DNA of 64,000 nucleotides from Actinomycetota bacterium (GTDB lineage Bacteria > Actinomycetota > Thermoleophilia > Gaiellales > Gaiellaceae): NCBI GenBank assembly GCA_046727655.1, contig JBKPDB010000043.1, positions 111 through 64,110 on the forward strand. The letters run 5' to 3'. Positions 8,487 through 57,023 of this stretch are shown piece after piece; the stretch's first letter is position 1, and every line of letters starts with the position of its first letter. Below the pieces are notes generated by a model that had not been told where the DNA came from, ran no database searches, and saw nothing but the letters and a program-made list of their open reading frames with translations. The position numbers and the translations under genes are program-made.

Positions 8487-8577
8487 GCAACGAACGTAGC
8501 GAAGCGCCGGCGAGCACACCAGATGTCATTTCGCGTGAAACCGTGACGAACGATCTACAAGCGGCCGTTTGGGACGA

Positions 8578-10245: not shown

Positions 10246-10249
10246 CGCC

Positions 10250-41374: not shown

Positions 41375-42661
41375 ATGATGGCCACCCGCGTGGAGGAAGT
41401 CCAGCGCCTGCCCGGCCAGGGCGAGCACGTGCTGCGAGGCAGCAACGACGCGCGGTGGCGCCTCCTCCCGTTCCTCGGCCCGGCATTCATCGCCTGCGTC
41501 GCATACATGGACCCGGGCAACTTCGCGACGAACATCGCGGGAGGCTCGAAGTTCGGCTTCATTCTCGTCTGGGTGATCGTCGCCTCGAATCTGATGGCGA
41601 TGCTGATCCAGACGCTCTCGGCGAAACTCGGGATCGCCACCGGTCGAAACCTCCCTGAGGTGTGCCGCGAGCGATTCTCGCGCAGGACGTCCATTGGCCT
41701 CTGGATCCAGGCCGAGGTGATCGCCATGGCGACGGACCTCGCCGAGTTCCTCGGGGCGGCACTCGGCATCAAGCTCCTGCTCGGGATCGGCCTGTTTCCG
41801 GCGGCGGTGATCACGGGCGTCATCACCTTCATGATCCTCGGGCTGCAGCGTTTCGGCTTCCGCCCGCTCGAAGCGGTGATCACGGCGTTCGTGTTCGTGA
41901 TCGGGATCTGCTACCTCGCCGAGCTCTGGCTCGCGCATCCGCCGCTCGGCACAGTCGCGAAACACGCCGTCGTGCCGGAGTTCGCCGGCAACGAATCCGT
42001 GCTGCTCGCGGTCGGGATCCTTGGCGCGACCGTGATGCCGCACGTCATCTACCTGCACTCCGCGCTGACGCAGCAGCGCATCGTGCCGCGTAACGACCAC
42101 GAGGCGAAGATCCTCTACAAGTACACGCGGATCGATGTGCTGATCGCGATGGTGATCGCAGGCCTGATCAACATGTCGATGCTCGTCGTCGCAGCCACCG
42201 TGTTCTTCGGCAGCGGCCTCACGGACGTGGACTCGCTCGAAGGCGCGCACCGGACACTCGAGCCGATCATCGGCGGCGCGTCGAGCGTCCTCTTCGCGCT
42301 CGCGCTGACCGCTTCCGGTCTCTCGAGTTCGACGGTTGGGACGATGTCCGGCCAGGTCGTCATGCAGGGATTCATCCGGCGACGAATTCCACTATTCGTG
42401 CGCCGGCTCGTGACGATGCTGCCGGCGTTCATTGTGATCGGAATCGGCCTCGACCCGTCGAGGACGCTCGTGTTCAGCCAGGTGGTGCTGTCCTTCGGGA
42501 TCCCCTTCGCGCTGATCCCCCTCGTGATCTTCACGAGCCGCCGCGACGTGATGGGCGTCCTCGTGAACCGGAAGGCAACGGTCGTCGCCGCGTCGGTCGT
42601 TGCGGCGCTGATCTCCGCCCTCAACGTCTTCCTGCTCGGACAGACCTTCGGCGTGACTTGA
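41375..42661 (+). CDS. mntH: Nramp-family divalent metal (Mn2+/Fe2+):proton symporter MntH
   Basis: 428 aa: LGPAFIACVAYMDPGNFATNI (DPGN motif), 11 TM, GATVMPHVIYLHSAL (MPH motif). Confidence 0.92.
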   Translation: MMATRVEEVQRLPGQGEHVLRGSNDARWRLLPFLGPAFIACVAYMDPGNFATNIAGGSKFGFILVWVIVASNLMAMLIQTLSAKLGIATGRNLPEVCRERFSRRTSIGLWIQAEVIAMATDLAEFLGAALGIKLLLGIGLFPAAVITGVITFMILGLQRFGFRPLEAVITAFVFVIGICYLAELWLAHPPLGTVAKHAVVPEFAGNESVLLAVGILGATVMPHVIYLHSALTQQRIVPRNDHEAKILYKYTRIDVLIAMVIAGLINMSMLVVAATVFFGSGLTDVDSLEGAHRTLEPIIGGASSVLFALALTASGLSSSTVGTMSGQVVMQGFIRRRIPLFVRRLVTMLPAFIVIGIGLDPSRTLVFSQVVLSFGIPFALIPLVIFTSRRDVMGVLVNRKATVVAASVVAALISALNVFLLGQTFGVT

Positions 42662-42855: not shown

Positions 42856-44019
42856 TCAGAGGTAGCCAAGCGGGTCCACTGGGGCCCCGTTGATCCGGAC
42901 CTCGAAGTGGAGATGCGCCCCGAAGCTGTGCCCCGTGCTGCCCACGTACCCGATCACCTGGCCCTGGGACACCTGCGCGCCCGCCGAGACGGCGTACGAG
43001 GACTGGTGCGCGTAGCACGTGGCCAGCCCGCCGCCGTGGTCGATGCAGGTGTAGTTGCCGTAGCCGCCTGTCCAACCTGCCAGCACCACGGTTCCCGCCG
43101 CGGCGGCATGGATCGGCGTGCCATAGCCGACACCGATGTCGATGCCCGCGTGCAACCGCCCCCAGCGATAGCCGAACGGGCTCGTCACCGGGCCGTTCAC
43201 GGGCCAGATGAGGCCGTGCGCGGACGGCGTCGTGTCCGTCGAACCGGACGACGCACGTGCCGTCTGTGCTGCCGCGAGCTGCGCACGAATGCGCGCATCC
43301 TCGGCGGCGAGGGCGTTGGCCTCCGCGATCATGACCGCCTTCTGCTCTCGCGTAGACGCGAGAGTGTTGCGCTGCCTGACGCGCTTCCCCGCGAGGCCGC
43401 GCTTCGAGGCGAGGAGCTCGATCCTGGCGATCCGCTGCTGTTGCGTCCGCACGGCGATCACCTGCGTCTCGGAACGGACGCGGGTACGCACCTCCTTGGT
43501 GCGCTCTCGCGCGACGCGGACGCGATCCCGCGCAGTGCCGACCGACCTCGCGATGTGCTTGTCCTGCTCCGCGATCGCCTCGAGGTAATGGATCCGATCG
43601 AGCGCGTCCTGCAGTGAGTGGGATTCGATGATCACATCCAGGAGCGTGGGATCGCGCGTCTCGTAGATATCGATCATCCGGACGTTCAGCTCGCGGACGA
43701 CCCGCGCGTACTCCCGGCGCAGAAACGCCAGCCGGTCCGACTGGAGAGCGAAGAGCTCGGTCAGGTGCTCGAGGCGTCGACGGTGCAGCTCGAGGTCCCG
43801 CTCGAGCACGGACAGCCTCTGGGAGACGTCGCCGACCCGCGCCTCGAGCTCCCGGATCTCGGACGTGATGTCCGTGATCTGGGCGCTGAGGTGAGACTCT
43901 TTCACCCGGGCGGCGGCGATCCTCTGGTGAAGCTCGCTGATCTTGCCGCTGTTGTCGCCGGCCGCGGGCGCGGCGAACACGAGCACGGCAGCGAGGACGA
44001 CGGCCAGTCTCCGGGCCAT
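42856..44019 (-). CDS. M23-family peptidoglycan DD-metalloendopeptidase with N-terminal coiled coil (EnvC-like architecture)
   Basis: Signal peptide, a ~250 aa coiled coil, and a C-terminal LytM domain: GRLHAGIDIGVGYGTPIHAAAAGTV...GGYGNYTCIDHGGGLATCYAHQS...VGSTGHSFGAHLHFEVRINGAPVDP. Confidence 0.88.
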   Translation of the reverse strand: MARRLAVVLAAVLVFAAPAAGDNSGKISELHQRIAAARVKESHLSAQITDITSEIRELEARVGDVSQRLSVLERDLELHRRRLEHLTELFALQSDRLAFLRREYARVVRELNVRMIDIYETRDPTLLDVIIESHSLQDALDRIHYLEAIAEQDKHIARSVGTARDRVRVARERTKEVRTRVRSETQVIAVRTQQQRIARIELLASKRGLAGKRVRQRNTLASTREQKAVMIAEANALAAEDARIRAQLAAAQTARASSGSTDTTPSAHGLIWPVNGPVTSPFGYRWGRLHAGIDIGVGYGTPIHAAAAGTVVLAGWTGGYGNYTCIDHGGGLATCYAHQSSYAVSAGAQVSQGQVIGYVGSTGHSFGAHLHFEVRINGAPVDPLGYL

Positions 44020-44932: not shown

Positions 44933-45254
44933 GCGTCGTCACCCGCTCCTCCGCGGCGTGCTCGGCCCGCAGGTCGAGCGCGCGCAACGCGCTCGCCGCG
45001 CGTCGCCTCAGAGGCCCGACGAGCCGGCGGTAGTCGTCGTCGGACACCTTGCCCGTGCGGTGATCGAACTCGAGCTCCTTGAGCGCGGCCAGAGCCCGGT
45101 CCCGTTCCTCGGCCAGCGACAGACGCCGCTGCTCGAGCTCGTCGGGACGTCCGAGCCGATCGTCGCCTGGGCGCGGCTCACGCAGAAACGGAAGTGCTAC
45201 GAGCAGCACGCATGCGACTGCGAGCACCGCGCCGACGACGAGTGCGACCGTCAT
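44925..45254 (-). CDS. Small TM plus coiled-coil protein, CcmI N-terminal-like (tentative)
   Basis: 109 aa. TM MTVALVVGAVLAVACVLLVALPFL, then L.EERDRALAALKELEFDHRTGKVSDDDYRRL, reminiscent of the CcmI/CycH N-terminal module. ATGA overlap with the ccmF stop. Confidence 0.35.
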   Translation of the reverse strand: MTVALVVGAVLAVACVLLVALPFLREPRPGDDRLGRPDELEQRRLSLAEERDRALAALKELEFDHRTGKVSDDDYRRLVGPLRRRAASALRALDLRAEHAAEERVTTRG

Positions 45255-47239
45255 ATCCGGACGGTCGCTCCTGCGTAGCGTTCGGCGAGCCGCCGCTCCT
45301 CGCGTGCGTCCGGCCAGAGCGCGATCAGCGAGCCGGCGAGGAAGACGAAGCCGGCGAGCCAGATCAGGTTGACGAGCGGTTTCTGCAACACCTTGAGATC
45401 GACTGTCCCGTCGCTGTTGATCTGGTCGGCGATCATGAAGAGGTCCCCGCCCGTGAGGAGATCGTGGCGGATCGACACCTCGTTCGAGATCTGGTCCTCG
45501 GCGAAGTACTGGTTCTTCCCGGGCTTGTACCGGCCGAGGTAATCGCCGCCGCGATAGACGTCTACGAGTGCCCGGATCGCGCGGTGGTTCGACGCGAGCG
45601 AGGTCTGATACCCGCGGAAGACGACTCTGTGATCCGCCACGTTCATCGCCTGGCCGGGTGCGAGCCGGCTTTCCCGAACGGTTTCGTAGGCACTTGACCC
45701 GGTGACCCCGAGGGCGAGCAGCACCACCGCGGCGTGGACGATGTAGCCCCCGTAGCGCCGGCGGTTACGCTCGACGAGGGAGCCGAACGCCCCCACCCAG
45801 CTCTCCCTCCCGAGTGCCTTACGCGCGGCCGTCCCGCGCGCGAACTCGAGCACGATCGACGCGAGGACGAACACCGAGAACGTGTACGCAATCACGCCGA
45901 TCCGGGACGAGCCCGCACCGAGAGCGAGAAGACAGACCCCGGCGACGACGGCGACGCTCAGTGGCCAGAGAAACGTCCGGCCAAGAGCGCGCAACGACGC
46001 GCGGCGCCACGCGACGAGCGGCCCGATCCCCATCAGCAGCAGAAGCGGCAACCCGAACGTGTGGAGGAAGAAGTTGTAGTAGGGCTTGCTGACGCTCGCG
46101 GCCTCGCCCGTCACCGCCTCGGACAGCAACGGATAGACGACGCCCCAGAGGATCGTCAGCGCGAGCGCGACGAGCAGCAGGTTGTTGTAGAGGAAGGTCG
46201 CCTCCCGCGAGACGAGCGACTCGAGCCGAGTCTTCGCGCGGAGGAGGGGCAGCCGCGCGAAGATCAGCGCGAGCGAGCCGGCGGCGATCAGACAGATGAA
46301 GCCCAGGAACCACGGTCCGATCGAGCTCTGCGTGAAGGAGTGGATCGACTGGACGATCCCGCTACGCGTCAGGAACGTCCCGAAGAGCGACAGCCCGAAC
46401 GCGAGCACGACGAGCAGCACGTTCCAGACCTTCAGCATGCCGCGCTTCTCCTGGATCATCACCGAGTGGAGGTACGCGGTCGCCGCAAGCCACGGCATCA
46501 GCGCCGCGTTCTCGACCGGATCCCAGGCGTAGTAGCCGCCCCAGCCGATCTCGACATACGCCCAGTGCGCGCCGAGCAACTGGCCGATGCCGAGAAACAT
46601 CCACGCGGCGAGCGTCCAGCGACGAGTCGCGACGATCCAGCGTTCGTCGGTCCTCCGCGCCAGCAGCGCTCCCATCGCGAACGCGAACGGCACCGTCAGG
46701 CCGACGTAGCCGAGGTAGAGGAGCGGCGGATGCACCGCCATGTAGGGGTTCTGGAGACTCGGGTTGAGGCCGGCGCCGTCCGCGACAGCCGCCTGCGTCA
46801 CGAACGGGCTCGCGACGAACACGAGCAGCAGGGCGAAGAAAGAGCCGACGAGCCCGAGCACCGGCACCACCCACGCCAACACCTCCTGGCCGACGCGGCG
46901 CGCCGTCAGCACGGCCGCCGCGGAATAGCCGCAGAGGACGAGGAGCCACAGCAGCAGGGAGCCTTCCTGCCCGCCCCAGAACGCCGTGAGGGTGTAGCCG
47001 AGCGGCAGCTCGCGGCTCGTGTGGTCGGCGACGTACTGGAAGGAGAAGTCGTGCCGGGCGAGCGCCGTGAGGAGGACGACCGAGGCGACGAGCGTCGCTG
47101 CGAAGGATCCGAGCAGCGCGTTCTGCGCAGACTCCGCCAGGCGGCGTCGTCCCTTCCACGCGGCGAACGACCCGGCAACGAGGGCGTAGACGAGCAGGAG
47201 GAGCGACGTGACGAGCGCCGCACGCCCGAGATCAGCCAT
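45251..47239 (-). CDS. ccmF: Cytochrome c-type biogenesis protein CcmF (heme lyase component)
   Basis: 662 aa, about 15 TM. WWD-type motif WGGYYAWDPVENAALMPWL and conserved His residues flanking it. Confidence 0.92.
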   Translation of the reverse strand: MADLGRAALVTSLLLLVYALVAGSFAAWKGRRRLAESAQNALLGSFAATLVASVVLLTALARHDFSFQYVADHTSRELPLGYTLTAFWGGQEGSLLLWLLVLCGYSAAAVLTARRVGQEVLAWVVPVLGLVGSFFALLLVFVASPFVTQAAVADGAGLNPSLQNPYMAVHPPLLYLGYVGLTVPFAFAMGALLARRTDERWIVATRRWTLAAWMFLGIGQLLGAHWAYVEIGWGGYYAWDPVENAALMPWLAATAYLHSVMIQEKRGMLKVWNVLLVVLAFGLSLFGTFLTRSGIVQSIHSFTQSSIGPWFLGFICLIAAGSLALIFARLPLLRAKTRLESLVSREATFLYNNLLLVALALTILWGVVYPLLSEAVTGEAASVSKPYYNFFLHTFGLPLLLLMGIGPLVAWRRASLRALGRTFLWPLSVAVVAGVCLLALGAGSSRIGVIAYTFSVFVLASIVLEFARGTAARKALGRESWVGAFGSLVERNRRRYGGYIVHAAVVLLALGVTGSSAYETVRESRLAPGQAMNVADHRVVFRGYQTSLASNHRAIRALVDVYRGGDYLGRYKPGKNQYFAEDQISNEVSIRHDLLTGGDLFMIADQINSDGTVDLKVLQKPLVNLIWLAGFVFLAGSLIALWPDAREERRLAERYAGATVRI

Positions 47240-47242
47240 GGG

Positions 47243-47641
47243 TTAGGTGCTCTTCTTCGGCGAGTACTTCGACGGGCACCTCGTCACGAGCGTGTCCGGC
47301 ACGGCGGTGAACACGCCGCCGCGCAGGCGGCCGTCGACGACGATCTCGCGACCCACGCGGAAGAGGTCCGGCACCGAGCCGCGGTAGCGAATCGGCACCG
47401 TCGTCGTCCCCTTCGGGTCGCGGAGACGAAACTGGAGGCCGGCGGCTCCGTGCGCGTCGCCTCGGACGGGTCCCACGACGACGCCCCCGAGCGACACGCG
47501 ACCGTCGTGCCCCGGAAGCTGGCTCGGCTGGAGCGACGGCGTGCCGCCGCCGGCGATGGACGTGTAGAGCAGGAAGACGGCGAGGACGGCCGCGACCGAG
47601 AGCGCGACGATCAGGCGAGCAGGGCTCCCTCTACGAGCCAC
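47243..47641 (-). CDS. ccmE: Cytochrome c maturation heme chaperone CcmE, Cys (CxxxY) variant
   Basis: 132 aa. TM anchor, OB-fold region (VPIRYRGSVPDLFRVGREIVVDGRL) and C-terminal LVTRCPSKYSPKK where canonical CcmE has H-x3-Y. The Cys codon is the complement of 47276-47278. Confidence 0.85.
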   Translation of the reverse strand: MARRGSPARLIVALSVAAVLAVFLLYTSIAGGGTPSLQPSQLPGHDGRVSLGGVVVGPVRGDAHGAAGLQFRLRDPKGTTTVPIRYRGSVPDLFRVGREIVVDGRLRGGVFTAVPDTLVTRCPSKYSPKKST

Positions 47642-47912
47642 CCTGAGATTCTAGTCCGACCCGCCTCGCGGCTCTTGGTTCCCAGCGGACGTCAGAGGCA
47701 TAGATCGAAGCGAGCGCCGCCGCCAGCTTGGGCTCGCCGCGCGCCGCATCGAGCAGACCTTCGACAACCGCCGTGGCAACACCTGCCGCGACATCCTCCA
47801 CCGCACGGCGACGATCGCCCGGCAGCGAGCGGAGCGGCCCTCGCGCCCGGTAGAGCTCGTGGTCGAGCACGACGCGAGCGTGCCGATGGAAGGCATGGGA
47901 TACCTGGCTCAC
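47631..47912 (-). CDS. Hypothetical small ORF translationally coupled to the oxidase paralog (GTGA overlap)
   Basis: GTG (complement of 47910-47912) overlaps the stop of 47909..51106. The 93 aa are helical and Ala/Arg/Val rich (…AVEDVAAGVATAVVEGLLDAARGEPKLAAALASIY…). It fills the otherwise empty 268-nt gap before ccmE. No homology recognised. Confidence 0.3.
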   Translation of the reverse strand: MSQVSHAFHRHARVVLDHELYRARGPLRSLPGDRRRAVEDVAAGVATAVVEGLLDAARGEPKLAAALASIYASDVRWEPRAARRVGLESQGGS

Positions 47913-50900
47913 CGCGCTCCCATTGCAGGGCGGACGGCAGACTCCGACGCCGCCCGAGCGGGAGCGATCGTCGGAAGGACGAAGCCGCAGAACATGAGCG
48001 CAATGCCGATCAGCTCGCCGACGTAGAGGAGCGACGTGTCGCCGGCGCGCGAGAGACCGGTCGATGCCGCGACCACCAGTGCACCGCACGCGATCCAGAC
48101 GTTCGCCCGCACCCGCTGTCGTCGCGCGATCGAGAGCAGCGACCCTCCGACGAGAAACAGCGTGCCGACGCAGTTGAGCGTGATCGCCCAGAGGAACGCG
48201 TGACCTCCGAGAGCGGAGTTCGCCGGCGGCTCGCCGCTTTTCGCGGCCGCGAGCACGCCGCTGTCGACAGGAGCGAGCGAGACGGTGACGATCGCCGCAG
48301 CCGTGGCGGCGAGCAACGCCCCCAAGAGCACGTCGCGCGCACGGCGGGGCAGCAACAGCCATGCGGATCCGCAACCCAGATACGCGACGGTCAGAACGCC
48401 GCCTGCGATGTAGTAGATGCGAAAGAGACTCGGCGTCCACCCGGCGCGCTGTGCCAAGGCTTCGCTGCCCGCGGCAAGAGCGAAGAGAACAAAGCCCGCG
48501 GCCCAGAGCGCCTTCGGGCCCGCAGGCCTATGCAGGAATGAACGTACGAGCAGCAGCGCAAACGCAAGGGCAAGCAGCGCCGCACCGACTGGAAGGAACG
48601 AAGAGGCGATCTGAGGTGAACTTCGGTCTCCACCAGAGCTGATGGCGGTGACAGGGGCGTCGCGCGCCACGACGACGAAGTAGGCGAAGTCGCGGCCGCC
48701 GAACATCCCCTGATGAGTCCCCACGAAGAGGTAACGCCCCGACTGCAGCCGATCCCGTGGCGCCAGAACGAGGGCCCTCGGCGAGCTCGAACGAACGGCC
48801 AGTTGGACGGGGCGTCCGCGCGCCAGGTTGAAGAGCTGGTACGCCTCGGGACTATCGACGACAGCGGCCCGGGCGATGAGCGCGTGGACGTCGGCGGCGT
48901 GCAGCCTCAGCGCGTCGCGCGGGTAGGGATTCTGTGGATCGGGCCAGGAGAAGAGCTTCACCGTACCGCCCCGGGTGACCAGGAACTGGCCCGTCACCTC
49001 GCGTGTGAAGCCGGTCTGGTACGTGTACCTGAGCGACCCAGAGACGATGCCGGACACGGGCGGAACGAAGGGGAGCGAGACGAGCACGAGCAGGATCGAC
49101 CCGATGGCCACGCCGACGCGCGTGCGGTAGCGATTACGTGACGAGGGTGGTCGCCTGCGGGCGATTCGGCGACGGCGGCGCCGGTGCGCGCGATAGAGCG
49201 CACCGGCGGAGAGAAGCGCACTGACCGCGAGCCACACGAACTCGAACTTCCAGCCAACCCCGCGCAGCGGGCCCGTGCCGTATGGGCTGAACGCCGATGG
49301 GATCACGGCCCAGGCGAGCACGGGGCCGATGAGGAGCAGGATCGCCGCGGTGAACGGAAACCCAGCGAAGAGCCAGCCGATGCCGGGGAAGCCGAGAAAC
49401 GCCATCGGCAGCTCGTAGCCGGCGAGCGCCGCCGGGCTCCGCATCCGTACACGCTTTGGAACCGGTCCTGCGTAGACCCTTGGTGCGGCCACGAGGGCGC
49501 GCCGGCCTGCCGCGCGCTGGCGCGCAGTCAGCTTCCAGGTGGCCACGGCGTAGGCGCCGAAGCCACCGAAGACGGCGAGAGCTGCCGGGATCAATAGGAG
49601 GGCGGGCCACGGTTGAAGAGCGGCGACGACGGAGGGGAACGTCTCGCCACCCGCGACGCGGCGAGCCTCGAGCGCCGAAATTACCATGCCCGCCGCGTAA
49701 TAGACGGCCATGCCGGCGGCGACGCCGACGAGCGTCATACGGGCATAGCCTGGACGGGTCCGAACGTCGAGGCCGCCGACCAACACCAGCGCGGCGCCCA
49801 CGAGGACCACCATCAGCCCGCCGAGCATGTTGAGCTGAGCGTGCAGGTTGACGATCACGCCGCCCGCGTCACCGCCCCGGTCGAGCAGCTCGTGCACCGC
49901 GGGGACGGCCTGCACCGGTCCCTGCAGCGTCCCGACCGCGAGCGCAGCGCATCCGGCGAGGACGAACAGGCGCGGCAACCCGTTGGCTCGCCAGAAGCAG
50001 CGGACGAGTACAGCAAGCAGCAGCCAGACAGCCGCGAACATCGCCACCCCACCGGCAATGATCAGGTAGGGATGGAGCGGCGTCGCCTCCTCGGCCTGCT
50101 CCGGGGTGAGCCCGCGCCGAGCAACCAGACGCCCTTCGTGAAAGCCGAGATAGAGCGCAGCGGCGTAGAAGGCGAGCGAGCCGCAGAGCAGCAGGTAGAA
50201 GCATGCGTTCGCGACCTTGCGCGCCGGCGGGGTCCCGCCGAGCAGCGGGACGAGGTAGAAGACGCAGCCGGCGACGAGCATCGTCAGCCCTGTCACGAGG
50301 TTGACGTGAGCATGGCTGATCGGGTCGATCCACTCCCCGGCGTGGCCCGCGCGGTAGAGCCAATCGGCCTGCGCAGGCGCCACCTGGATCACGCCCTGCA
50401 CCGTGCCGACCGTCAGTCCAGCGGCGCCGGTGGCGAGGAACTTCCAAAGATGCCCGCTCGGCTTCGGTACCTGCACCAGGCGCGCGTGGAAGACGGTCAG
50501 GAACACGTTGGCGGCGAAGCACCAGTAACCGAGCCCCATGACGCCGGCGCCGATTCCGACCGGCACCTTGTACCACTTGCCCATGCTCGCCTTCGCGGTC
50601 TCGTAGTCCCAGCCATGCGCGACGAGGCGCCCGATCACGATCCCGTTGCCGACGAAGGCGACGTAGAAGACGAGCAGCCCGACGGCTGTGAACCAGAACG
50701 CACACTGGGCCAGCGCGTCGCTGGCGAGCGGCCTGCCGACGATGCGCGGCAGGACGTACCAGCACAGGCCGGTGGCGATCAGGGTGCCGCCGCCGACGAT
50801 CATCACGTGCGTGTTGGCCAGGTCACGGACGAGATGTCCGGCGTAGCCGGCGCGCGCGAGCCACTCGGCCGTCCAGGGCATGTTCTTCACGACCATGTGG

Positions 50901-51106
50901 AGGCTGCCCAGGACGAGGAAGCCCCCGCCGGCGACGAAGTACTTCGCCAGCTTCCGGTCATGCGCGCCGAGTTGCTCCTCGCTGTGAGGCACCGTTCGAA
51001 CGGGCGGAGCCTTCCCCGGCAGGAGGCGCCAGAGGGAGGCAATGACGATGGTGAAGAAGGCGACGTAGGTCAGGAACTCGAGCGACGAGAGGTGCTTCAG
51101 GTACAC
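47909..51106 (-). CDS. Divergent heme-copper oxidase subunit I (cbb3/CcoN-like) paralog fused to a ~575-aa C-terminal multi-TM extension
   Basis: 1065 aa, GTG start. Residues ~50-480 align by eye helix-by-helix with the CcoN encoded at 53692..55203 (e.g. THVMIVGGG...YVLPRIVGRP vs GHVNGVILAW...YMLPRLCGTR; SHAHVNL vs YAHNLFG). Two canonical His ligands are replaced (see finding). No in-frame stop splits it. Confidence 0.6.
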   Translation of the reverse strand: MYLKHLSSLEFLTYVAFFTIVIASLWRLLPGKAPPVRTVPHSEEQLGAHDRKLAKYFVAGGGFLVLGSLHMVVKNMPWTAEWLARAGYAGHLVRDLANTHVMIVGGGTLIATGLCWYVLPRIVGRPLASDALAQCAFWFTAVGLLVFYVAFVGNGIVIGRLVAHGWDYETAKASMGKWYKVPVGIGAGVMGLGYWCFAANVFLTVFHARLVQVPKPSGHLWKFLATGAAGLTVGTVQGVIQVAPAQADWLYRAGHAGEWIDPISHAHVNLVTGLTMLVAGCVFYLVPLLGGTPPARKVANACFYLLLCGSLAFYAAALYLGFHEGRLVARRGLTPEQAEEATPLHPYLIIAGGVAMFAAVWLLLAVLVRCFWRANGLPRLFVLAGCAALAVGTLQGPVQAVPAVHELLDRGGDAGGVIVNLHAQLNMLGGLMVVLVGAALVLVGGLDVRTRPGYARMTLVGVAAGMAVYYAAGMVISALEARRVAGGETFPSVVAALQPWPALLLIPAALAVFGGFGAYAVATWKLTARQRAAGRRALVAAPRVYAGPVPKRVRMRSPAALAGYELPMAFLGFPGIGWLFAGFPFTAAILLLIGPVLAWAVIPSAFSPYGTGPLRGVGWKFEFVWLAVSALLSAGALYRAHRRRRRRIARRRPPSSRNRYRTRVGVAIGSILLVLVSLPFVPPVSGIVSGSLRYTYQTGFTREVTGQFLVTRGGTVKLFSWPDPQNPYPRDALRLHAADVHALIARAAVVDSPEAYQLFNLARGRPVQLAVRSSSPRALVLAPRDRLQSGRYLFVGTHQGMFGGRDFAYFVVVARDAPVTAISSGGDRSSPQIASSFLPVGAALLALAFALLLVRSFLHRPAGPKALWAAGFVLFALAAGSEALAQRAGWTPSLFRIYYIAGGVLTVAYLGCGSAWLLLPRRARDVLLGALLAATAAAIVTVSLAPVDSGVLAAAKSGEPPANSALGGHAFLWAITLNCVGTLFLVGGSLLSIARRQRVRANVWIACGALVVAASTGLSRAGDTSLLYVGELIGIALMFCGFVLPTIAPARAASESAVRPAMGAR

Positions 51107-51119
51107 CGCATCCGCCGAG

Positions 51120-51314
51120 TTAGCGGAGGCCGGGCTCGATGAAGTAGACGGTGAGCATCCACCCCAATGAGAGGGCGATCATCACCGCCAGAATGACCCA
51201 CGCGCGGACATGCGCTTGGCGCGACCAGCGGACGTCCTCGCCCACGTCGCGGTAGCCGAGCAGCGGCCGCGCCGGGCGAGCCTGGCGCTGCTCGCGGTCC
51301 TCGGGCTCCTCCAT
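51120..51314 (-). CDS. Small single-TM protein, hypothetical
   Basis: 64 aa from ATG 51314 (MEEPEDREQRQ...AWVILAVMIALSLGWMLTVYFI). The ATG shares one nt with the upstream stop (TGATG). Confidence 0.35.
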   Translation of the reverse strand: MEEPEDREQRQARPARPLLGYRDVGEDVRWSRQAHVRAWVILAVMIALSLGWMLTVYFIEPGLR

Positions 51315-51631
51315 CAGAACACCTTCTCCATGATCAGGCTCCGCTCGGGCCCGAGACCCTCCCCAAGATCGGCCAGCAGACGCTCGAAGGTGTAGCCGCG
51401 TTCGAGGAAGGCCTCGAGCTGGGTAGACGTGTCCCACGTCGTGTAGCAGTGAATCCGCACGTCGTCGCCTTGCTCGACACGGGTGAAGACGTCGAATCGC
51501 TGGCACCCCGGGTACTCCTGCACGTGGCCCTTGAGCGACTGCAGCGACGCGTACACCCCTTGCCACTCGCTCGCAGGCACGAGGGTTTCCGTCAGGCTCG
51601 AGTAGGCGACGAACGGCGGGGCGGCGGCCAT
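51314..51631 (-). CDS. ABM (antibiotic biosynthesis monooxygenase-like, ferredoxin-fold) domain protein
   Basis: 105 aa from ATG 51631: MAAAPPFVAYSSLTE...SLKGHVQEYPGCQRFDVFTRVEQGDDVRIHCYTTWDTSTQLEAFLERGY has the typical ABM pattern. TGATG overlap with the upstream stop. Confidence 0.55.
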   Translation of the reverse strand: MAAAPPFVAYSSLTETLVPASEWQGVYASLQSLKGHVQEYPGCQRFDVFTRVEQGDDVRIHCYTTWDTSTQLEAFLERGYTFERLLADLGEGLGPERSLIMEKVF

Positions 51632-51978
51632 CAGAAGCGCTGTCCCCAGATGAGGTGGCTGACGACCAAGACAACCGCGAACGCGGTCAGGAACGCCGTC
51701 AAGATGAGAAAGAACGCTGTCGCAGGACCGGCCGCCTCGGAAGCCCAGCCGCCGAAGCGGTCGACCGGGTAGATCCCGGCGCGCTGCCTGGTCGTCCTGT
51801 ACTGCTTCACCCACAGCCCGGCAGCCACGATGAGCACGATGATGAAGCCCCAGAGCCAGGCGAGCGAGAGCCAGTCGACGTGCCACGTCTCGACGCGGCC
51901 GTCGACGATGTGGTGGCTGTTCAGGTAGTCGTAGTACTGCTGCGCTGTCTCCGGCGAGTCACCGGTTGGCATCGCCAT
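51631..51978 (-). CDS. Hypothetical membrane protein (2 TM)
   Basis: 115 aa with TMs WLSLAWLWGFIIVLIVAAGLW and ATAFFLILTAFLTAFAVVLVV. Lies in the oxidase operon. Confidence 0.4.
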   Translation of the reverse strand: MAMPTGDSPETAQQYYDYLNSHHIVDGRVETWHVDWLSLAWLWGFIIVLIVAAGLWVKQYRTTRQRAGIYPVDRFGGWASEAAGPATAFFLILTAFLTAFAVVLVVSHLIWGQRF

Positions 51979-52270
51979 CGTCCCACTCCTCCTCGTCGTA
52001 CGCCCAGTCGGGCGTGTAGTAGTCCTCCTCCTCGATCTCGAGTGGCACCCGCGAGGCCTCTGCCAGGTTGTGGAAGTGGCCGAGCTTCCAGGTGATGACG
52101 AACGCGATCAGCGCGACGCCCGCGAGGATGAAGAACATGTCGAGCATCCAATCCGCCATGACCCACTTCGACTGGTCGTTCTCCGGCGCATCGTGCCCAA
52201 GCGCCGCCGCGGGAACGGCGAGCGAGGCTGCCAGCGCGAAGACGGCCGTGATGAGAAGACGCCTCATCAA
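51959..52270 (-). CDS. Small exported/TM protein with acidic tail, hypothetical
   Basis: 103 aa. Signal-like N-terminus (MMRRLLITAVFALAASLAVPAAALG), TM (MFFILAGVALIAFVITW) and an acidic tail EEEDYYTPDWAYDEEEWDDGD. ATGA overlap with the ccoO/P stop. Confidence 0.4.
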   Translation of the reverse strand: MMRRLLITAVFALAASLAVPAAALGHDAPENDQSKWVMADWMLDMFFILAGVALIAFVITWKLGHFHNLAEASRVPLEIEEEDYYTPDWAYDEEEWDDGDANR

Positions 52271-53688
52271 TGGCCCGGCAGTGTCGGAGGAATGTCCTTC
52301 TGTACCTCAGGCGGTAGCTTGTCGCCGCGAGCCCTTGCGTCGGTCCAGGCGCGGTCGAGGAGATCTTCGTAGATCGTCTTGATGCCGGCGGCGGCGTCCT
52401 TGAGGGTGAGCGGCGTCTCGAGGCCGTTGACGACAATCACGTCGCTCGGCGCAAGACCCGGGAAGGTGCGCCGCGCTGCCTGGAAGAAGGGATCCGCGAG
52501 CTCGTGCTTGGCGAACGACGCGTTCTTCGCGATCTGCTGGCGCGTCTTGACCCACGCCAGCAACTCCTTCGACGGTGACCAGACGATGTAGTCCTTCGGG
52601 GTCGGGATGCGGTGTTTGGCCAGCGTCTTGTTCGGGATCGTCTTCAGGAACAGGACGACACGCCAGATGTCGTCCACCGAGAGCCGCTCGCCGAAGTTCT
52701 CCATCCCAGTGCCCGGCCACCCGCGCAGGATGCGGTAGTAGAAGTCACCCGGACCGGTGTCGCCGCCGCAACATTGATCGTCGGCGTCGTCGAACGGAAG
52801 CGGAGTCGGCGACAGGAAAGATTCCGCTGGACCCTTCCCGTTGCCCTGCGGCCCGTGGCAGCCGACGCAGCGCTCGAGAAAGATCTCCTTGCCGCGGAGC
52901 AGGTTCGCCGTCGTCACCGGCAGGGGGTTGGCGGCGAGCCAGTAGCTGCGGTCGATCTGGGCGAGGTTGGGCGCCTCTTCGAGCTGGTTCGGCGGCGGCT
53001 TCACCTCCTTCGGCTTGAGGGGTGGCCTGTGCGCACCCTGGAAGCCCGTGTACGGCGCCGGGAAGCCCTGGACCGTGTTGACGACGTGCTTCGCATAGAG
53101 CTGGCTGGCATACCGCAGCAGGCCTGACTTGCCGCTGCGCTCCTGCGTGAACAGGATGAGGTTGTCGACCTGCTTGTCCGAGAAGAGCGACTTCATCGGC
53201 GGCATCAGCGACAGCGGGTCGATGAACCGTGGGTTGTAGAAGTGCGCCCGGTGCCAGTCGTCGGGGTGCCAGCCTGCATCCTGCGACAGGTCGGGGCCCG
53301 TCCGCTCCGTCCCGAACAGGTTCGGCGACTGGTCGCTGCCGAAGAAGTCACCCGGCTGGGAGACTTTCGGATAGAGGAAGTACAGCGCGTAGCGCACGTC
53401 CTGCGGCCGTGAGTAGCCGGAGTGGCACACGTAGCAGCCGTTGGAGGCGAACAGGTCGCGGCCCTTGACGGCGCTCTTGGAGAGGGGCGCCCAGTCGGCC
53501 GACGCGGGGGGATCGAAGGTGTGGATCGGGAGCCAGACGACCGCGAAGACGACGGCGAAGAATGCCAACAGCCCACCGAGGCCGGCAACGAGCGGCGTCA
53601 TCAGCATCCGCTCGCGCGGGTGCGGAGCCCAGCCGCGCGGAGCTCGCGGCTCGGCCTCGTTCGACTCGAATCGGTCGCCCTCGGCCAT
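52267..53688 (-). CDS. Fused cbb3-type oxidase cytochrome c subunits (CcoO-like N-terminal half plus mono-heme CcoP-like C-terminal half)
   Basis: 473 aa. TM anchor, a first CxxCH (GCYVCHSGY) within GRDLF..NGC..CHS...R.....GPDL...G......H..H..NP......S.MP (CcoO pattern), and a second CxxCH (CVGCHGPQGNGKG) followed later by Met (PGTGMENF). Confidence 0.8.
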   Translation of the reverse strand: MAEGDRFESNEAEPRAPRGWAPHPRERMLMTPLVAGLGGLLAFFAVVFAVVWLPIHTFDPPASADWAPLSKSAVKGRDLFASNGCYVCHSGYSRPQDVRYALYFLYPKVSQPGDFFGSDQSPNLFGTERTGPDLSQDAGWHPDDWHRAHFYNPRFIDPLSLMPPMKSLFSDKQVDNLILFTQERSGKSGLLRYASQLYAKHVVNTVQGFPAPYTGFQGAHRPPLKPKEVKPPPNQLEEAPNLAQIDRSYWLAANPLPVTTANLLRGKEIFLERCVGCHGPQGNGKGPAESFLSPTPLPFDDADDQCCGGDTGPGDFYYRILRGWPGTGMENFGERLSVDDIWRVVLFLKTIPNKTLAKHRIPTPKDYIVWSPSKELLAWVKTRQQIAKNASFAKHELADPFFQAARRTFPGLAPSDVIVVNGLETPLTLKDAAAGIKTIYEDLLDRAWTDARARGDKLPPEVQKDIPPTLPGH

Positions 53689-53691
53689 CGG

Positions 53692-55203
53692 CTAGCTCAC
53701 AGGCAGAGGCGGCGAGGCGGCCTCGGCGAACCGCAGCGTCTCCAGCCGTCTCCGTTCCTGCGTGTTCGACCAGATCGTCATGCCGACGTTGATCATCTGC
53801 ACGATCCCCGAAGCGATGATCATCACGCCGAAGATTCCGCGCGCGATGAAGTACGCATGGAGCTGCGGCAGCACGTTCACCTCGGGGATCCCCTGAGCCC
53901 AGCTGAAGCCCTGCTGGAAGCCGGCGAGGGTGAGCACGCTGAAGAAGCCCGTGAAGCCGATCGTGACTAGCCAGTACTGCCATTCGGTCAGACTGCGACT
54001 CCATAACGGACGTGCGTAGACCTGCGCGACGATGTAGTCGATCACGCCCATGCCGAGGATCGTGAAGGCGCCGAGTAACGCGAGGTGCGCATGAGCGACG
54101 ACGAAGTTCGTGAAGTGGGTGAGCCGGTTGAACGGCTGCAGCGCCTGGAAAGCTCCCTGAATGTTGACGAGCCAGTAGAAGAAGAACGCCGTCAGCGTGA
54201 AGCGAAGGGGTAAGTTCGTGAAGAACTTGTCCCAGTTGCCCTTCATCGTGCCGAGGATGTTGATCGTGAAGGCGAAGACGGGGACGAGCAGCATCCAGGA
54301 AGACGTCGTGGCGATGGTCTTGAGCCAGGCCGGCGTCGGCGACTGCAGGATGTGATGGTCGCCGACCCCGGTGTAGAAGAAAGCGATGCCCCAGAAACTG
54401 ACGAGCGAGAGGGTGTAGCCGTAGAGCGGCGTGTTCGTGACGCGCGGAACCATGTAGAGCGTCAGCGCGACCAGCATCGGCGTCAACCAGAGACCGAACA
54501 GGTTGTGCGCGTACCACCAGTTCAGCATCGCGTCCGCGAGACTGTTCGAGAGGGTGCCCGAGGGCGCGCCCCAGATATGGCCGGGCCTCCAAAGGACGTT
54601 GCCGATCGCGTAGTCGACCGCGAGCCACAACGGACTCGCGAGGAACCACCAGACCGTGACGTAAATCGGCCTGATCGTCCGAATCTGGACGGTGGCGATG
54701 ATGTTGACGATGTTGAGGCACCAGATCACGAGCAAAGCGATGTCGAGCGGCCAGATCAGCTCGCCGTACTCACGACCCTGGCTGTGACCTGTAAGCAACC
54801 CGATCACGCCCAGCAGGTACATGGCGTTCCACGCCCACGCACACCACACGCCCAGCCGCTCGCTCCACATCCCGCGTGTGCCGCACAGCCGCGGGAGCAT
54901 GTAGAAGAGCGCGCCGAAGTACATCATCGTCAGCCAGGCGAGGATCACGCCGTTGACATGGCCCTGACGGACGCGTGAGAAGGCGAGCCACGAGATGCCG
55001 CCGAAGGCATCCGGGCTGATGAACTCGGTCGAGAGCACGCCGCCGAAGAGGTCGACGACGGTCAGCCAGATGATCGACGAGAGCAGCCAGTGACGAGCCG
55101 CACGATCCCGGTACGGGAGCGCGCGTGGAGCCTTGAGCGGAATCGCAGCAGGAGCAGGCGGCTCGAGGACCGCCGCGCTTGGCTCCCGAGTTCGCTCGGC
55201 CAT
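53692..55203 (-). CDS. ccoN: cbb3-type cytochrome c oxidase subunit I (CcoN)
   Basis: 503 aa, 12 TM, with all six canonical His: RQGHVNG, NWWYAHNLFG, GVGDHHIL (Tyr six residues before the HH pair), VVAHAHLALLG. Confidence 0.88.
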   Translation of the reverse strand: MAERTREPSAAVLEPPAPAAIPLKAPRALPYRDRAARHWLLSSIIWLTVVDLFGGVLSTEFISPDAFGGISWLAFSRVRQGHVNGVILAWLTMMYFGALFYMLPRLCGTRGMWSERLGVWCAWAWNAMYLLGVIGLLTGHSQGREYGELIWPLDIALLVIWCLNIVNIIATVQIRTIRPIYVTVWWFLASPLWLAVDYAIGNVLWRPGHIWGAPSGTLSNSLADAMLNWWYAHNLFGLWLTPMLVALTLYMVPRVTNTPLYGYTLSLVSFWGIAFFYTGVGDHHILQSPTPAWLKTIATTSSWMLLVPVFAFTINILGTMKGNWDKFFTNLPLRFTLTAFFFYWLVNIQGAFQALQPFNRLTHFTNFVVAHAHLALLGAFTILGMGVIDYIVAQVYARPLWSRSLTEWQYWLVTIGFTGFFSVLTLAGFQQGFSWAQGIPEVNVLPQLHAYFIARGIFGVMIIASGIVQMINVGMTIWSNTQERRRLETLRFAEAASPPLPVS

Positions 55204-55279: not shown

Positions 55280-55981
55280 ATGTCATCTCAACTGCGTTAT
55301 GGTCGGTCTGCGGTCATGCGGATCATGGTGATCGAGGACGAGCCTCGCATCCTCGGGTTCCTCGTCCGAGGGCTCGAGGCCGAAGGCTTTTCGGTGGAGG
55401 CTGCACGCAACGGTTCCGAAGGACTGAAGCGCGCCCGCCGCGGTGCGTACGACCTCGTTCTCCTCGATCTTCTGCTTCCCGGCCAGGACGGACTGAGCGT
55501 CCTACACGAGCTCAATCGCGCACGCCCGGAGCTGCCTGTCGTCATCGTGTCGGCACGTTCCGACCTCGCGACGAAGCTGCGCGGATTCGGCCTCGGCGCT
55601 GCCGACTACCTCAGCAAGCCCTTCTCGTTCGATGAGCTGATCGCACGCGTTCGCGTGCAGCTCCGGAGGGCGCGAACGGGCGAAGAAGGCCATGTTCTAC
55701 GCTCGGGAACGCTCGTCCTCGACCTCGCGCGACGCGAGGCGCGGATCGGGTCGGTTACGGCCCATCTGTCGGACCGCGAATTTCGCGTCCTTCATCACTT
55801 GCTCGAGCATCCCGGCGAGGTCATCAGTCGCGAGCGGCTCCTGTCCGAGGTGTGGGGATACCACTTCGATCCAGGTTCGAACGTCGTCGACGTCTGCATC
55901 CGCCGGCTGCGGAAGAAGCTCGGCACCGACGCCCCGATCGAGACGGTTCGACATGCGGGTTATCGGCTTACTGCAGCGTAG
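55280..55981 (+). CDS. OmpR/PhoB-family response regulator (canonical)
   Basis: MRIMVIEDEPRIL...DLVLLDLLLPGQDG...SARSD...ADYLSKPF plus the winged helix. The likely true start is the internal ATG 55316 (MRIMVIEDE). Confidence 0.9.
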   Translation: MSSQLRYGRSAVMRIMVIEDEPRILGFLVRGLEAEGFSVEAARNGSEGLKRARRGAYDLVLLDLLLPGQDGLSVLHELNRARPELPVVIVSARSDLATKLRGFGLGAADYLSKPFSFDELIARVRVQLRRARTGEEGHVLRSGTLVLDLARREARIGSVTAHLSDREFRVLHHLLEHPGEVISRERLLSEVWGYHFDPGSNVVDVCIRRLRKKLGTDAPIETVRHAGYRLTAA

Positions 55982-57023
55982 ATCCGTCGAGGTCGCGTGG
56001 GCGGCGTTCGCGGTCGCGAACCTCGTCGCGATGCGGGTGTGGCCAGGGTGGGAGACAATTCCGTTCCACTTCATCTGGATCAGCCTCACGCTTGTCTACG
56101 GCTTTCGCGTCTGGCGATCCGCGGCGACGTACCTGACGCTGTTGGCGGTTGTCGCTTCGACCGGCGCACTCATCCTCGACGACACCTTTTCCGGTGAACA
56201 GCTTTGGGGCGAGCTGTTCGAGGTGCCGCTCATGTCGGCGATGTTCCTGGCCATGGTCTGGCACGCACGGAGGCGTCACGATGCGCTCGGGATCGTGGAA
56301 CGCCAGGCCACGCAGCGAGCCTCGCTCCTGGAACGGCAGGAACGCTTCCTGCACGACGCCTCACACGAGTTGCGTACCCCGGTCACGATCGCGCGCGGGC
56401 ACCTCGAGGTGCACCGCAGGATGAACGGGAACGACGCTCCCGAAATCGACGTCGCGCTCGACGAGCTCCATCGCATCGAACAAATCCTCGAGCGCCTGCT
56501 CCTCCTCGCCAAGGCCGATCAGCCCGACTTCGTCGTGTTGGAAGAGATCGACCTCGACCCGTACCTGGAAGACGTGTTCATGCGCTGGTCCGAGGTTGCG
56601 CCGCGAGCCTGGAAGCTCGGTCATCTGGCTCCGGGACGGCTAGCAGTCGATCCGGAGGGTCTCCGGTGTGCGCTCGACGCGCTGTTCGAGAACGCTGTGA
56701 AGTTCACCGATGACGGCGACACAATCGAGCTGCGGGCGCGCGCCGTGGGGGGAGACGCGGTGATCGAGGTCGAGGACGGAGGTGACGGAGTTCCAGAGGC
56801 CGCGCTCACGCACATCTTCGATCGCTTCTCCCGTGCAGACGCCGCGCGGACGCGGGTGCACGGGGGCGTGGGCCTCGGCCTCGCGATCGTCGATGCGATC
56901 GCAAAGGCACACGGCGGCCACTGCACGGTCCGCAATCTGAAACACGGCGCGGTCTTCGCGCTGCGCATGCCGAGATTCCGGGCGGCGTCGCTGACCACGC
57001 TCGGACTCTTACGCAACTCTTAG
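55953..57023 (+). CDS. Sensor histidine kinase (membrane, HisKA plus HATPase_c)
   Basis: ATG 55953 overlaps the RR 3' end by 29 nt. 4 TM, H-box FLHDASHELRTPVTIARGH, N-box LFENAVKFT, G-boxes DGGDGVP and GGVGLGLAIVDAI. Confidence 0.85.
   Translation: MRVIGLLQRRSVEVAWAAFAVANLVAMRVWPGWETIPFHFIWISLTLVYGFRVWRSAATYLTLLAVVASTGALILDDTFSGEQLWGELFEVPLMSAMFLAMVWHARRRHDALGIVERQATQRASLLERQERFLHDASHELRTPVTIARGHLEVHRRMNGNDAPEIDVALDELHRIEQILERLLLLAKADQPDFVVLEEIDLDPYLEDVFMRWSEVAPRAWKLGHLAPGRLAVDPEGLRCALDALFENAVKFTDDGDTIELRARAVGGDAVIEVEDGGDGVPEAALTHIFDRFSRADAARTRVHGGVGLGLAIVDAIAKAHGGHCTVRNLKHGAVFALRMPRFRAASLTTLGLLRNS

Follow-up and report, generated by a model that had tools for sequence, protein, structure and literature searches.

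What does a protein with the fold of a heme-copper oxidase (HCO) subunit I do in an operon that already encodes a complete cbb3 oxidase? The question is raised by a gene at positions 47909..51106 on the minus strand of a 64,000-nucleotide stretch of DNA from a member of the Gaiellaceae (Actinomycetota; Thermoleophilia), which we refer to as the window (GenBank assembly GCA_046727655.1, contig JBKPDB010000043.1). The open reading frame (ORF) has 1065 codons, is uninterrupted, and begins with a GTG at the same position as in its homologues. It encodes, in order, an N-terminal domain of HCO fold, a module of two transmembrane (TM) helices with a 'GFPGxGW' motif, a TM anchor, a predicted periplasmic beta-sandwich and a bundle of seven TM helices. 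The initial annotation of the window had correctly described this frame and the canonical ccoN upstream of it in the same gene train (53692-55203, 2.6 kb away), and had read the protein as a CcoN altered by His-to-Glu and His-to-Gln substitutions. We find that it represents a new family within the known HCO fold, distinct from the existing families but not a wholly new kind of system, in which four invariant histidines appear to be displaced by one structural module. The account that we favour, with somewhat less than even confidence, is that the protein is a non-catalytic, cofactor-holding 'pseudo-oxidase' that acts as an accessory or assembly partner of the neighbouring cbb3 oxidase.

Fold, conservation and distribution of the family

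The AlphaFold2 (AF2) model of the whole protein had a mean predicted local distance difference test score (pLDDT) of 75, with most TM-helix blocks of the N-terminal domain at 84-94. Foldseek comparison of this domain with the PDB returned 3mk7_A (cbb3 CcoN) at a TM-score of 0.67 and 3o0r_B (cNOR NorB) at 0.73, over ~500-530 aligned columns and with a probability of 1.00, and other matches were to ba3, bo3, qNOR and aa3 subunit I. As modelled, the N-terminal 12 helices adopt the HCO subunit-I fold in three four-helix arcs. The Pfam COX1 (PF00115) score of the protein was 37.8 bits against a cut-off of 34.8, from a local match that was out of register, and Chloroflexia-type relatives scored 81-108 bits, so that the sequence tie to HCOs is marginal in the window protein and clear in those relatives. 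TIGR00780 (ccoN), for which the trusted cut-off is 583 bits and the window CcoN scores 248 bits, did not match the protein at E <= 0.1. The only NCBIfam matches were to CtaD_CoxA (31.9 bits) and PRK14485 (27 bits), and in the NCBIfam search no model covered the family. A search of the PDB with the single sequence gave matches to ribosomal protein L16 only, which were discarded as chance.

A search of 5.8 billion protein clusters yielded at least 733 matches to the protein. The best 120 were without exception full-length proteins (1017-1079 aa) of 66-98% identity to it; they came from metagenome-assembled genomes of Gaiellaceae, Thermoleophilaceae and Solirubrobacteraceae. Most were labelled 'hypothetical', and 'cbb3-type cytochrome c oxidase subunit I' was the label of a small number. 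Across 121 Thermoleophilia sequences, 295 positions were at least 99% conserved, including H49, H91, H100, H265, H267, H323, E324, H345, H422 and Q424, and the mean column identity was 78%. Relatives occur in Thermoleophilia and Chloroflexota and are encoded in at least 579 GTDB species genomes; the best 80 loci of the genome scan behind this figure were all from Thermoleophilia, and distant members were reached by other searches. The gene is real and conserved, and this conservation, seen in the cluster matches, the 295 positions and the species genomes, excludes the reading of a decayed copy. The initial annotation had likewise regarded the protein as neither a redundant oxidase nor a decayed one, and the family proved to be a distinct one of HCO fold with a conserved C-terminal extension. 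No description of it was found in the literature searched, which left out most subscription journals.

When 1.84 billion representatives were searched with a profile, 1532 matched at E < 1e-3, of which 245 reached E < 1e-30. Because the HCO superfamily is so large that many more matches would be expected, the profile would seem to miss most HCOs. The counts of representative clusters (1532, 741 and 245) themselves overstate the real diversity, since many of the matching representatives are frameshifted or chimeric calls. P0159, P0168, P0196, P0207, P0227, P0251 and P0252 are such gene calls, from error-prone assemblies of high G+C content. P0192, P0196, P0207, P0227, P0251 and P0252 were considered as stand-alone versions of the C-terminal extension and rejected as contig-edge fragments or frameshifted high-GC calls.

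Modules, register and the histidine pattern

Judged from profile comparisons, the HCO-like domain is made up of three overt homologous four-helix modules, all encoded on the minus strand: repeat 1 (residues 45-215, TM1-4; 50462..50974), repeat 2 (residues 216-375, TM5-8; 49982..50461) and repeat 3 (residues 376-525, TM9-12; 49532..49981). Comparison of the repeats with one another by hhalign gave E values of 4e-14, 7e-15 and 2.5e-6 with the Thermoleophilia alignment, and of 3e-42, 3e-36 and 6e-29 with an alignment of 16 members sharing 29-43% identity. The same comparison among the three units of the co-operonic CcoN reached only ~1e-5, and we know of no other HCO-fold protein in which the three four-helix units are plainly homologous by sequence. 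Each module was closest to unit 3 of CcoN (helices IX-XII; E 6e-16, 1e-12 and 7.5e-9), with weaker similarity to units 1 and 2, and the repeat profile ties together the three units of canonical CcoN (E 1e-6 to 1e-16).

Because the three internal repeats all resemble helices IX-XII, every sequence match of the protein to canonical oxidases is out of register. The Pfam COX1 alignment places residues 216-351 at profile positions 304-430, the NCBIfam CtaD alignment places residues 228-369 at positions 338-467, and a second NCBIfam match pairs residues 97-160 with the helix-X region; BLASTP against the window CcoN produced three overlapping registers. The helix-by-helix correspondence with CcoN on which the initial annotation relied is not unique, as these matches and those to PDB profiles are out of register.

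The register was instead fixed, without gaps, by the Y-x-x-P (or Y-x-x-x) motif that ends the second helix of each module in both the HCO-like protein and CcoN. Position 'a' lies 22 residues before the motif Pro and position 'b' 20 residues before it. The window CcoN has H82 at a in module 1 (helix II), H233 at b in module 2 (helix VI), and H371 at a and H373 at b in module 3 (helix X); its ligands to heme b, CuB and heme b3 are presumably those of the 3mk7 structure, and the chain numbering in the alignment agrees with this assignment. In the HCO-like protein, module 1 carries N98 at a (codon 50813-50815) and H100 at b (50807-50809), module 2 carries H265 at a (50312-50314) and H267 at b (50306-50308), and module 3 carries H422 at a (49841-49843) and Q424 at b (49835-49837). 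Profile-to-PDB alignments with Pseudomonas CcoN put the helix-II His opposite N98, and an Asn two residues on opposite H100. A collinear reading in which H100 is the helix-II ligand, as the initial annotation had it, was rejected as the default: it needs a two-residue gap inside the helix, and ungapped alignments to three CcoN proteins put N98 at that position.

H100, H265, H267 and H422 were invariant in 159 diverse members, apart from one sequence that is gapped at H265/H267. Q424 was kept in 157 of the 159 and E324 in 154. At position a of module 1, actinobacterial forms have Asn or Tyr, and 43 of 106 Chloroflexia-type proteins have His. Only two of the six canonical ligand histidines are found in register, at helix VI-b (H267, with the same spacing of 20 residues from His to Pro as in CcoN) and at helix X-a (H422). 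N98 occupies helix II-a and Q424 helix X-b, and the His pair of helix VII has no family-wide counterpart. In this register the family is without a CuB site, and both canonical ligands of the low-spin heme are absent. Retention of the helix-VI CuB ligand as H267 and the change of the helix-X H-x-H to H422-A-Q424, aligned here by profile, agree with what had first been proposed, as do the codons assigned to Q424 (49835-49837) and E324 (50135-50137).

The change of the helix-VII His pair to His-Glu did not survive the same scrutiny. H323 and E324 (50135-50140) are not opposite the canonical pair in the profile alignment. H323 is invariant in Thermoleophilia only, being Ile, Val or Ala in nearly all other members, and E324 lies in a G-x-x-E-G motif that closes the third helix on its outer side and recurs in module 1 (96 of 106 Chloroflexia-type proteins) and in module 3 (E480; 132 of 159 members). 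A cross-linked Tyr in the active site defines the O2 reductases; no conserved Tyr was found beside a His pair in the protein, the alignment of helix VII being uncertain at the position of the cross-linked Tyr. The description of the protein as a CcoN with two substituted ligands therefore fails as a frame, because there is no helix-VII pair outside Thermoleophilia, there are no low-spin ligands in register, and the invariant H265 had been left out of account.

In an HCO, residues b(X) and a(X+1) form the cofactor site between modules X and X+1. The pair b(3) and a(1) holds the low-spin heme, and the binuclear centre takes b(2) for CuB and a(3) for the high-spin heme; to our knowledge, the b(1)/a(2) interface is empty in all known HCOs. 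By the same rule, the interfaces of the HCO-like protein would be H100/H265 at b(1)/a(2), H267/H422 at b(2)/a(3) and Q424/N98 at b(3)/a(1). As b/a pairs are filled at the interfaces of modules 1/2 and 2/3, we infer that the four invariant histidines correspond to the canonical four-His core moved by one module, with helix VI (H-A-H) in the role of helix X (H-x-H). A pattern moved in this way lends no support to the altered NO or O2 chemistry implied by the substitutions first described. A circular permutation, in which R1-R2-R3 of the protein would be R2-R3-R1 of a canonical oxidase, was also considered. The His pattern fits it, but the similarities of the modules do not discriminate, all being nearest to canonical module 3.

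It is conceivable, though on balance unlikely, that the family keeps, or has independently re-made, an ancestral HCO state in which a four-helix H-x-H module occurs in three copies and each interface provides a cofactor site; the H100/H265 interface ('pore A') would then be filled and that of the low-spin heme vacated. The same 43 of 106 Chloroflexia-type members, in which two modules carry H-x-H and the remaining one H-x-Q, can be cited for this possibility.

With CcoN (for example 3mk7_A) the protein shares the 12-TM fold, the three four-helix units, His at VI-b and X-a, a Y-x-x-P per unit and a ccoN-ccoO operon. Unlike CcoN, it has no helix-VII His pair, has N98/Q424 at the positions of the low-spin ligands and has an additional invariant H265 (VI-a) and H100 (II-b). 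Overt repeats, an extra N-terminal helix and a C-terminal extension of 120-575 aa also distinguish it. The HCO families described so far are A, B, C, cNOR, qNOR, eNOR, sNOR, bNOR, nNOR, gNOR, NOD and a putative N2O reductase; among the non-canonical ones, no more than a single active-site His is exchanged (for Asp, in gNOR), and one low-spin heme ligand is changed in nNOR and some eNORs (PMC11214002). Like gNOR, nNOR, sNOR, eNOR, bNOR and NOD, which are HCO-fold proteins without the cross-linked Tyr, the present family has changed ligands and comes mainly from uncultured lineages, and it may share the lack of that Tyr. It differs from these in that two active-site histidines are missing, the His pattern is one module off, there is no subunit II of its own and the gene lies in a C-family operon; the families of nitric oxide reductase (NOR) derived from the B family come with a cupredoxin-type subunit II. 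The present family departs much further from canonical HCOs than the families of that survey (PMC11214002), none of which resembles it in repeat structure.

Operon context and C-terminal extension

The first gene of the operon is ccoN (53692..55203, minus strand, as are all genes of the operon), a canonical C-family HCO subunit I with Pfam COX1 and TIGR00780 scores of 248 bits each and six ligand histidines, all of them conserved in 62 orthologues. It is followed by a fusion of ccoO with a CcoP-like cytochrome c domain (52267..53688; Pfam FixO, Cytochrom_C and Cytochrome_CBB3), by four small ORFs, sA to sD, and by the gene of the HCO-like protein. The intergenic gaps along this series are 3, -4, -20, -1, -1 and 13 nt. 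Conservation of the arrangement was assessed in the fetched loci with enough flanking sequence, 62 in all and 59 for downstream genes. The ccoN and ccoO/P genes were upstream of the gene on the same strand in 62 of 62 loci and sA-sD were present in 58-60 of them, with the HCO-like gene last of the operon in all 62. The same order of ccoN, ccoO/P, small ORFs and HCO-like gene surrounds members that are only ~30% identical (L004, L005 and L086).

The first small protein, sA (51959..52270; 103 aa; 60 of 62 loci), has a signal-peptide-like N-terminus, a single TM helix and a strongly acidic tail. A His at least 90% conserved directly follows the signal-like segment (A-x-x-H-D-x-P-E), and a conserved W-V-M-x-D-W-M comes after it; the N-terminal His and the Met-rich segment may form a copper-binding peptide. 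Its match to FixS/CcoS was sub-threshold (E 0.18). Two TM helices are predicted in sB (51631..51978; 115 aa; 59 of 62 loci). The soluble sC (51314..51631; 105 aa; 60 of 62 loci) scored 19.7 bits with ABM, below the cut-off of 23.1. The ABM fold, a ferredoxin-like alpha+beta barrel, includes heme-binding and heme-degrading proteins, and sC could be a cytoplasmic heme handler. The last, sD (51120..51314; 64 aa; 58 of 62 loci), has one TM helix and a conserved E-P-G-L-R end, and its stop codon lies 13 nt from the start codon of the HCO-like gene. CcoG, CcoH, CcoI and CcoS were not found in the operons and flanks examined, the only match to FixS/CcoS being the sub-threshold one of sA.

Members of the family occur in two forms. 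The short form (~625-730 aa), which predominates in Chloroflexota (Chloroflexia and Candidatus Chloroheliales) and is labelled 'cbb3-type cytochrome c oxidase subunit I' by PGAP and IMG, consists of the HCO-like domain and the two-helix module. The long form (~1065-1120 aa), to which the window protein belongs, adds the TM anchor, the extracytoplasmic beta-sandwich and the seven-helix bundle. The two-helix module (residues 555-650; 49157..49444) is present in both, carries an invariant E565 and the motif G-F-P-G-x-G-W578, and belongs to no Pfam family. Homology of the motif region to CopD was sub-threshold (E 0.054) and reproduced in 1 of 14 diverse members, and was set aside as noise. A similarity to the TM2 domain (1 of 14 members, E 0.045) was not supported. 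The polybasic stretch that follows, after residue 640, would be cytoplasmic by the positive-inside rule.

Residues 541-1065 were modelled by AF2 with a pLDDT of 71. The hydrophilic stretch at 685-835 that had been noted at first sight is present and is modelled as the beta-sandwich, and ~10 further TM helices lie beyond the HCO-like domain. The beta-sandwich (residues ~690-815; 48662..49039) is found in long forms only. Its Foldseek similarity to CopC/PcoC was weak but repeated (TM-score 0.50-0.60, root mean square deviation 3.5-5.5 Å, E 0.025-0.08); it gave no match to Pfam CopC, or to any other Pfam family. The Cu(II) ligands of CopC are an N-terminal His, an Asp or Glu and a His. Across the long forms, no CopC copper ligand was conserved and the beta-domain contained no invariant His. 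Also confined to long forms, the C-terminal bundle (residues ~833-1040; 47987..48610) gave weak GPCR-like 7TM fold matches to its AF2 model and sub-threshold Pfam matches: 17.7 bits for 7TMR-DISM_7TM against a cut-off of 29 (E 0.0008-0.0035), a family matched in one of five long-form members, and HisKA_7TM in two of the five. Pfam found nothing above threshold in the C-terminal extension.

Copper chaperones for oxidases act outside the cell. In P0150 (878 aa), encoded at 8001-10637 of locus L005, a short form is followed by the TM anchor and then by an SCO1/SenC domain (Pfam 125.7 bits) at the place where the long form has its beta-sandwich. By a count of helices from the polybasic stretch, the beta-domain would lie outside the cell, and so would the SCO1 domain of P0150. 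A gene for a YtkA-domain protein is directly upstream of P0177 in L004 (7413-7979), and a Caa3_CtaG gene adjoins the operon of P0150 in L005 (2748-3404).

Downstream of the HCO-like gene in the window are ccmE (47243..47641, minus strand; Pfam CcmE), at a distance of 267 nt, and ccmF (45251..47239, minus strand; Pfam Cytochrom_C_asm and CcmF_C). The pair belongs to System I cytochrome c maturation, and no other ccm genes adjoin it in the stretch examined. We rejected the two genes as part of the unit and regard them as variable neighbours, ccmE being downstream in 23 and ccmF in 25 of 59 loci. Two long antisense ORFs, at 45734-48541 (935 aa) and 49613-51142 (509 aa) on the plus strand, overlap ccmF, ccmE and the HCO-like gene. 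Their products would be of low complexity, rich in Arg, Ala and Gly; they are not genes, and are expected of stop-poor frames in DNA of 69% G+C, which is about the content of the window. The plus-strand AT skew is 0.27-0.31 at 46001-50000 (ccmF and the HCO-like gene), compared to ~0 to 0.1 over most of the remaining window, likely because the minus strand here encodes hydrophobic membrane proteins, whose codons are rich in T. A two-component system, consisting of an OmpR-type response regulator and a histidine kinase (55280..57023, plus strand), is divergent from ccoN, is also present in L001 and L003, and is a candidate regulator of the operon. Beyond ccmF, an Nramp-family metal transporter (427 bits; 41375-42661, plus strand) and an M23 peptidase (42856-44019, minus strand) are syntenic with the Gaiellaceae locus L001; no link of either to the operon was established.

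Proposed role and alternatives

If the protein is a non-catalytic partner of the cbb3 oxidase, each His pair (H100/H265 and H267/H422) would clamp a heme of b type, or perhaps a metal ion, close to the outer membrane face, most likely giving two b hemes at the two interfaces. N98 and Q424 would stand at the interface where real oxidases have the low-spin heme. No reduction of O2 or NO would be expected, because most family members lack the helix-VII His pair for CuB or FeB. As a product of the same translationally coupled operon as CcoN, CcoO/P and the four small proteins, the protein would be a dedicated partner of its oxidase and most likely a scaffold for biogenesis, on which extracytoplasmic chaperone modules (the fused SCO1/SenC, the neighbouring YtkA and its own CopC-like beta-domain) could dock, and from which copper and/or heme would be passed to CcoN. 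It may possibly stay bound as a subunit. We count in favour of this role the fold, the triple repeat, the ligand pattern, the linkage to the cbb3 operon, the links to copper chaperones and the presence of ccmE/ccmF in a subset of loci. The initial annotation had left a sensor, an assembly scaffold and NO- or O2-related chemistry as options, of which we now prefer the scaffold and find the chemistry unsupported.

Two known systems offer parallels. The CcoG/CcoH/CcoI/CcoS and SenC (SCO1) copper relay of Proteobacteria is likewise encoded right after the cco genes, is membrane-bound and, as in P0150, is linked to a copper chaperone. The HCO-like protein differs from CcoGHIS in having no sequence homology to them, and the functional likeness would follow from gene context. 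NifEN is a paralogue of the catalytic subunit NifDK that has lost catalysis, has kept cofactor sites and is encoded beside the enzyme that it serves; the likeness is one of concept only, the proteins being unrelated.

Several points weigh against a role as partner. The pairing of the histidines rests on the pseudo-symmetry rule and on the sequence register, and cofactor binding and interaction with the oxidase are purely predicted. No homology to the cbb3 assembly proteins CcoG, CcoH and CcoI was found with Pfam or NCBIfam. The SCO1 fusion occurs in one cluster representative, and YtkA and CtaG adjoin in one locus each and may just serve CcoN. The similarity of the beta-domain to CopC is weak (E 0.025-0.08), with the copper ligands unconserved. 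An assembly factor accounts for the tight translational coupling no better than would a subunit that stays bound in fixed stoichiometry. A centre of catalytic type is also conceivable in Thermoleophilia, where two histidines (H267 and H323) and one carboxylate (E324) could hold a metal ion opposite a heme on H422.

A permanent subunit with a redox function is a possible though doubtful alternative. Two bis-His b hemes side by side near the outer face would feed the c hemes of CcoO/P, drawing their electrons either from a partner complex or from menaquinol that the HCO-fold domain would oxidise, and giving a quinol-linked cbb3 oxidase in lineages without soluble cytochrome c. Four invariant histidines at heme-holding positions of the HCO fold, a strict operon translationally coupled with ccoN and ccoO/P, and a mean column identity of 78%, typical of a structural subunit, are all consistent with this, and quinol oxidation is reported to have evolved several times within the HCO fold (PMC11214002). 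No residues of a quinol site could be identified in the protein, however, and with both sites at one membrane depth no charge separation would be gained. Such a subunit also leaves the fusion to, and neighbourhood of, copper chaperones unexplained, and gives no role to the beta-sandwich and the 7-TM extension.

We consider it rather improbable that the protein is a new catalytic HCO, in which a heme on H422 would face a non-heme metal held by H267, H323 and E324 (two His and one Glu) and perform NO or O2 chemistry, for example in shielding the cbb3 oxidase from NO. The HCO fold is present, the four residues are invariant in the 121 Thermoleophilia sequences, and E324 is kept in 154 of 159 members. 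In NO reductases of the superfamily, a high-spin heme faces a non-heme metal to which helices VI and VII supply three ligands (His2Asp in gNOR, otherwise His3, to which Glu may be added), and the exchange of an active-site His for a carboxylate in gNOR makes its proposed His-His-Asp site comparable (PMC11214002). In the present family, however, only H267 and E324 of such a metal site are family-wide; H323 is clade-specific and is replaced by Ile, Val or Ala in nearly all members outside Thermoleophilia that have the same operon, and the profile alignment does not pair H323/E324 with the canonical His pair. With both low-spin heme ligands missing in register, the usual path of electron entry is absent. 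An electron partner of NOR type (NorC or a cupredoxin subunit II) was also lacking: the only electron-donor subunit found was CcoO/P, which belongs with the true CcoN, and no cupredoxin subunit, NorC or denitrification gene was present in the window or the other neighbourhoods examined (including L001, L003, L004, L005 and L086).

Very unlikely, in our estimate, is a membrane sensor or regulator that would modulate the oxidase through its HCO-like domain. The extension resembles 7TMR-DISM receptors in having an extracytoplasmic beta-sandwich followed by seven TM helices, and the 7TMR-DISM_7TM and HisKA_7TM matches and the GPCR-like fold matches described above point the same way. All the Pfam matches are below threshold, however, and the protein has no cytoplasmic signalling or output domain, as it stops ~25 aa past the last helix. 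Short forms with the same operon do without the extension, which is then not the core function. A decaying or frameshifted ccoN duplicate without function, which a Pfam score of 37.8 bits against a cut-off of 34.8 and the lack of a PDB match by sequence might have suggested, is refuted almost beyond doubt by full-length homologues of 66-98% identity in more than 100 clusters, 295 invariant positions, at least 579 species genomes, synteny across two phyla and a confident fold model.

Hundreds of genomes of soil Thermoleophilia and Chloroflexota carry this gene as 'hypothetical' or, wrongly, as 'cbb3-type cytochrome c oxidase subunit I'. Members mislabelled in this way by PGAP and IMG (P0111, P0276, P0293, P0309, P0313, P0372 and others) are without CuB ligands and inflate the number of oxidases in metabolic reconstructions. 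The known biogenesis factors of cbb3 oxidases, CcoGHIS, are a proteobacterial set. In the operons examined, the HCO-like gene and the four small ORFs follow ccoN and ccoO/P in their place, which makes the protein a candidate route for the delivery of CuB or heme to CcoN, or else an unrecognised large subunit of the oxidase. The origin of the oxidase core by triplication, long assumed, becomes testable by phylogeny at the level of modules, since the repeat profile of the family links the three units of canonical CcoN. If the family does represent the ancestral state, it would provide the first sequence-level evidence for this triplication together with a new arrangement of cofactors in the HCO fold, and the Thermoleophilia may in addition have a 2-His-1-Glu metal site. 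The family is a natural experiment in the shifting of cofactor sites round a pseudo-symmetric scaffold.

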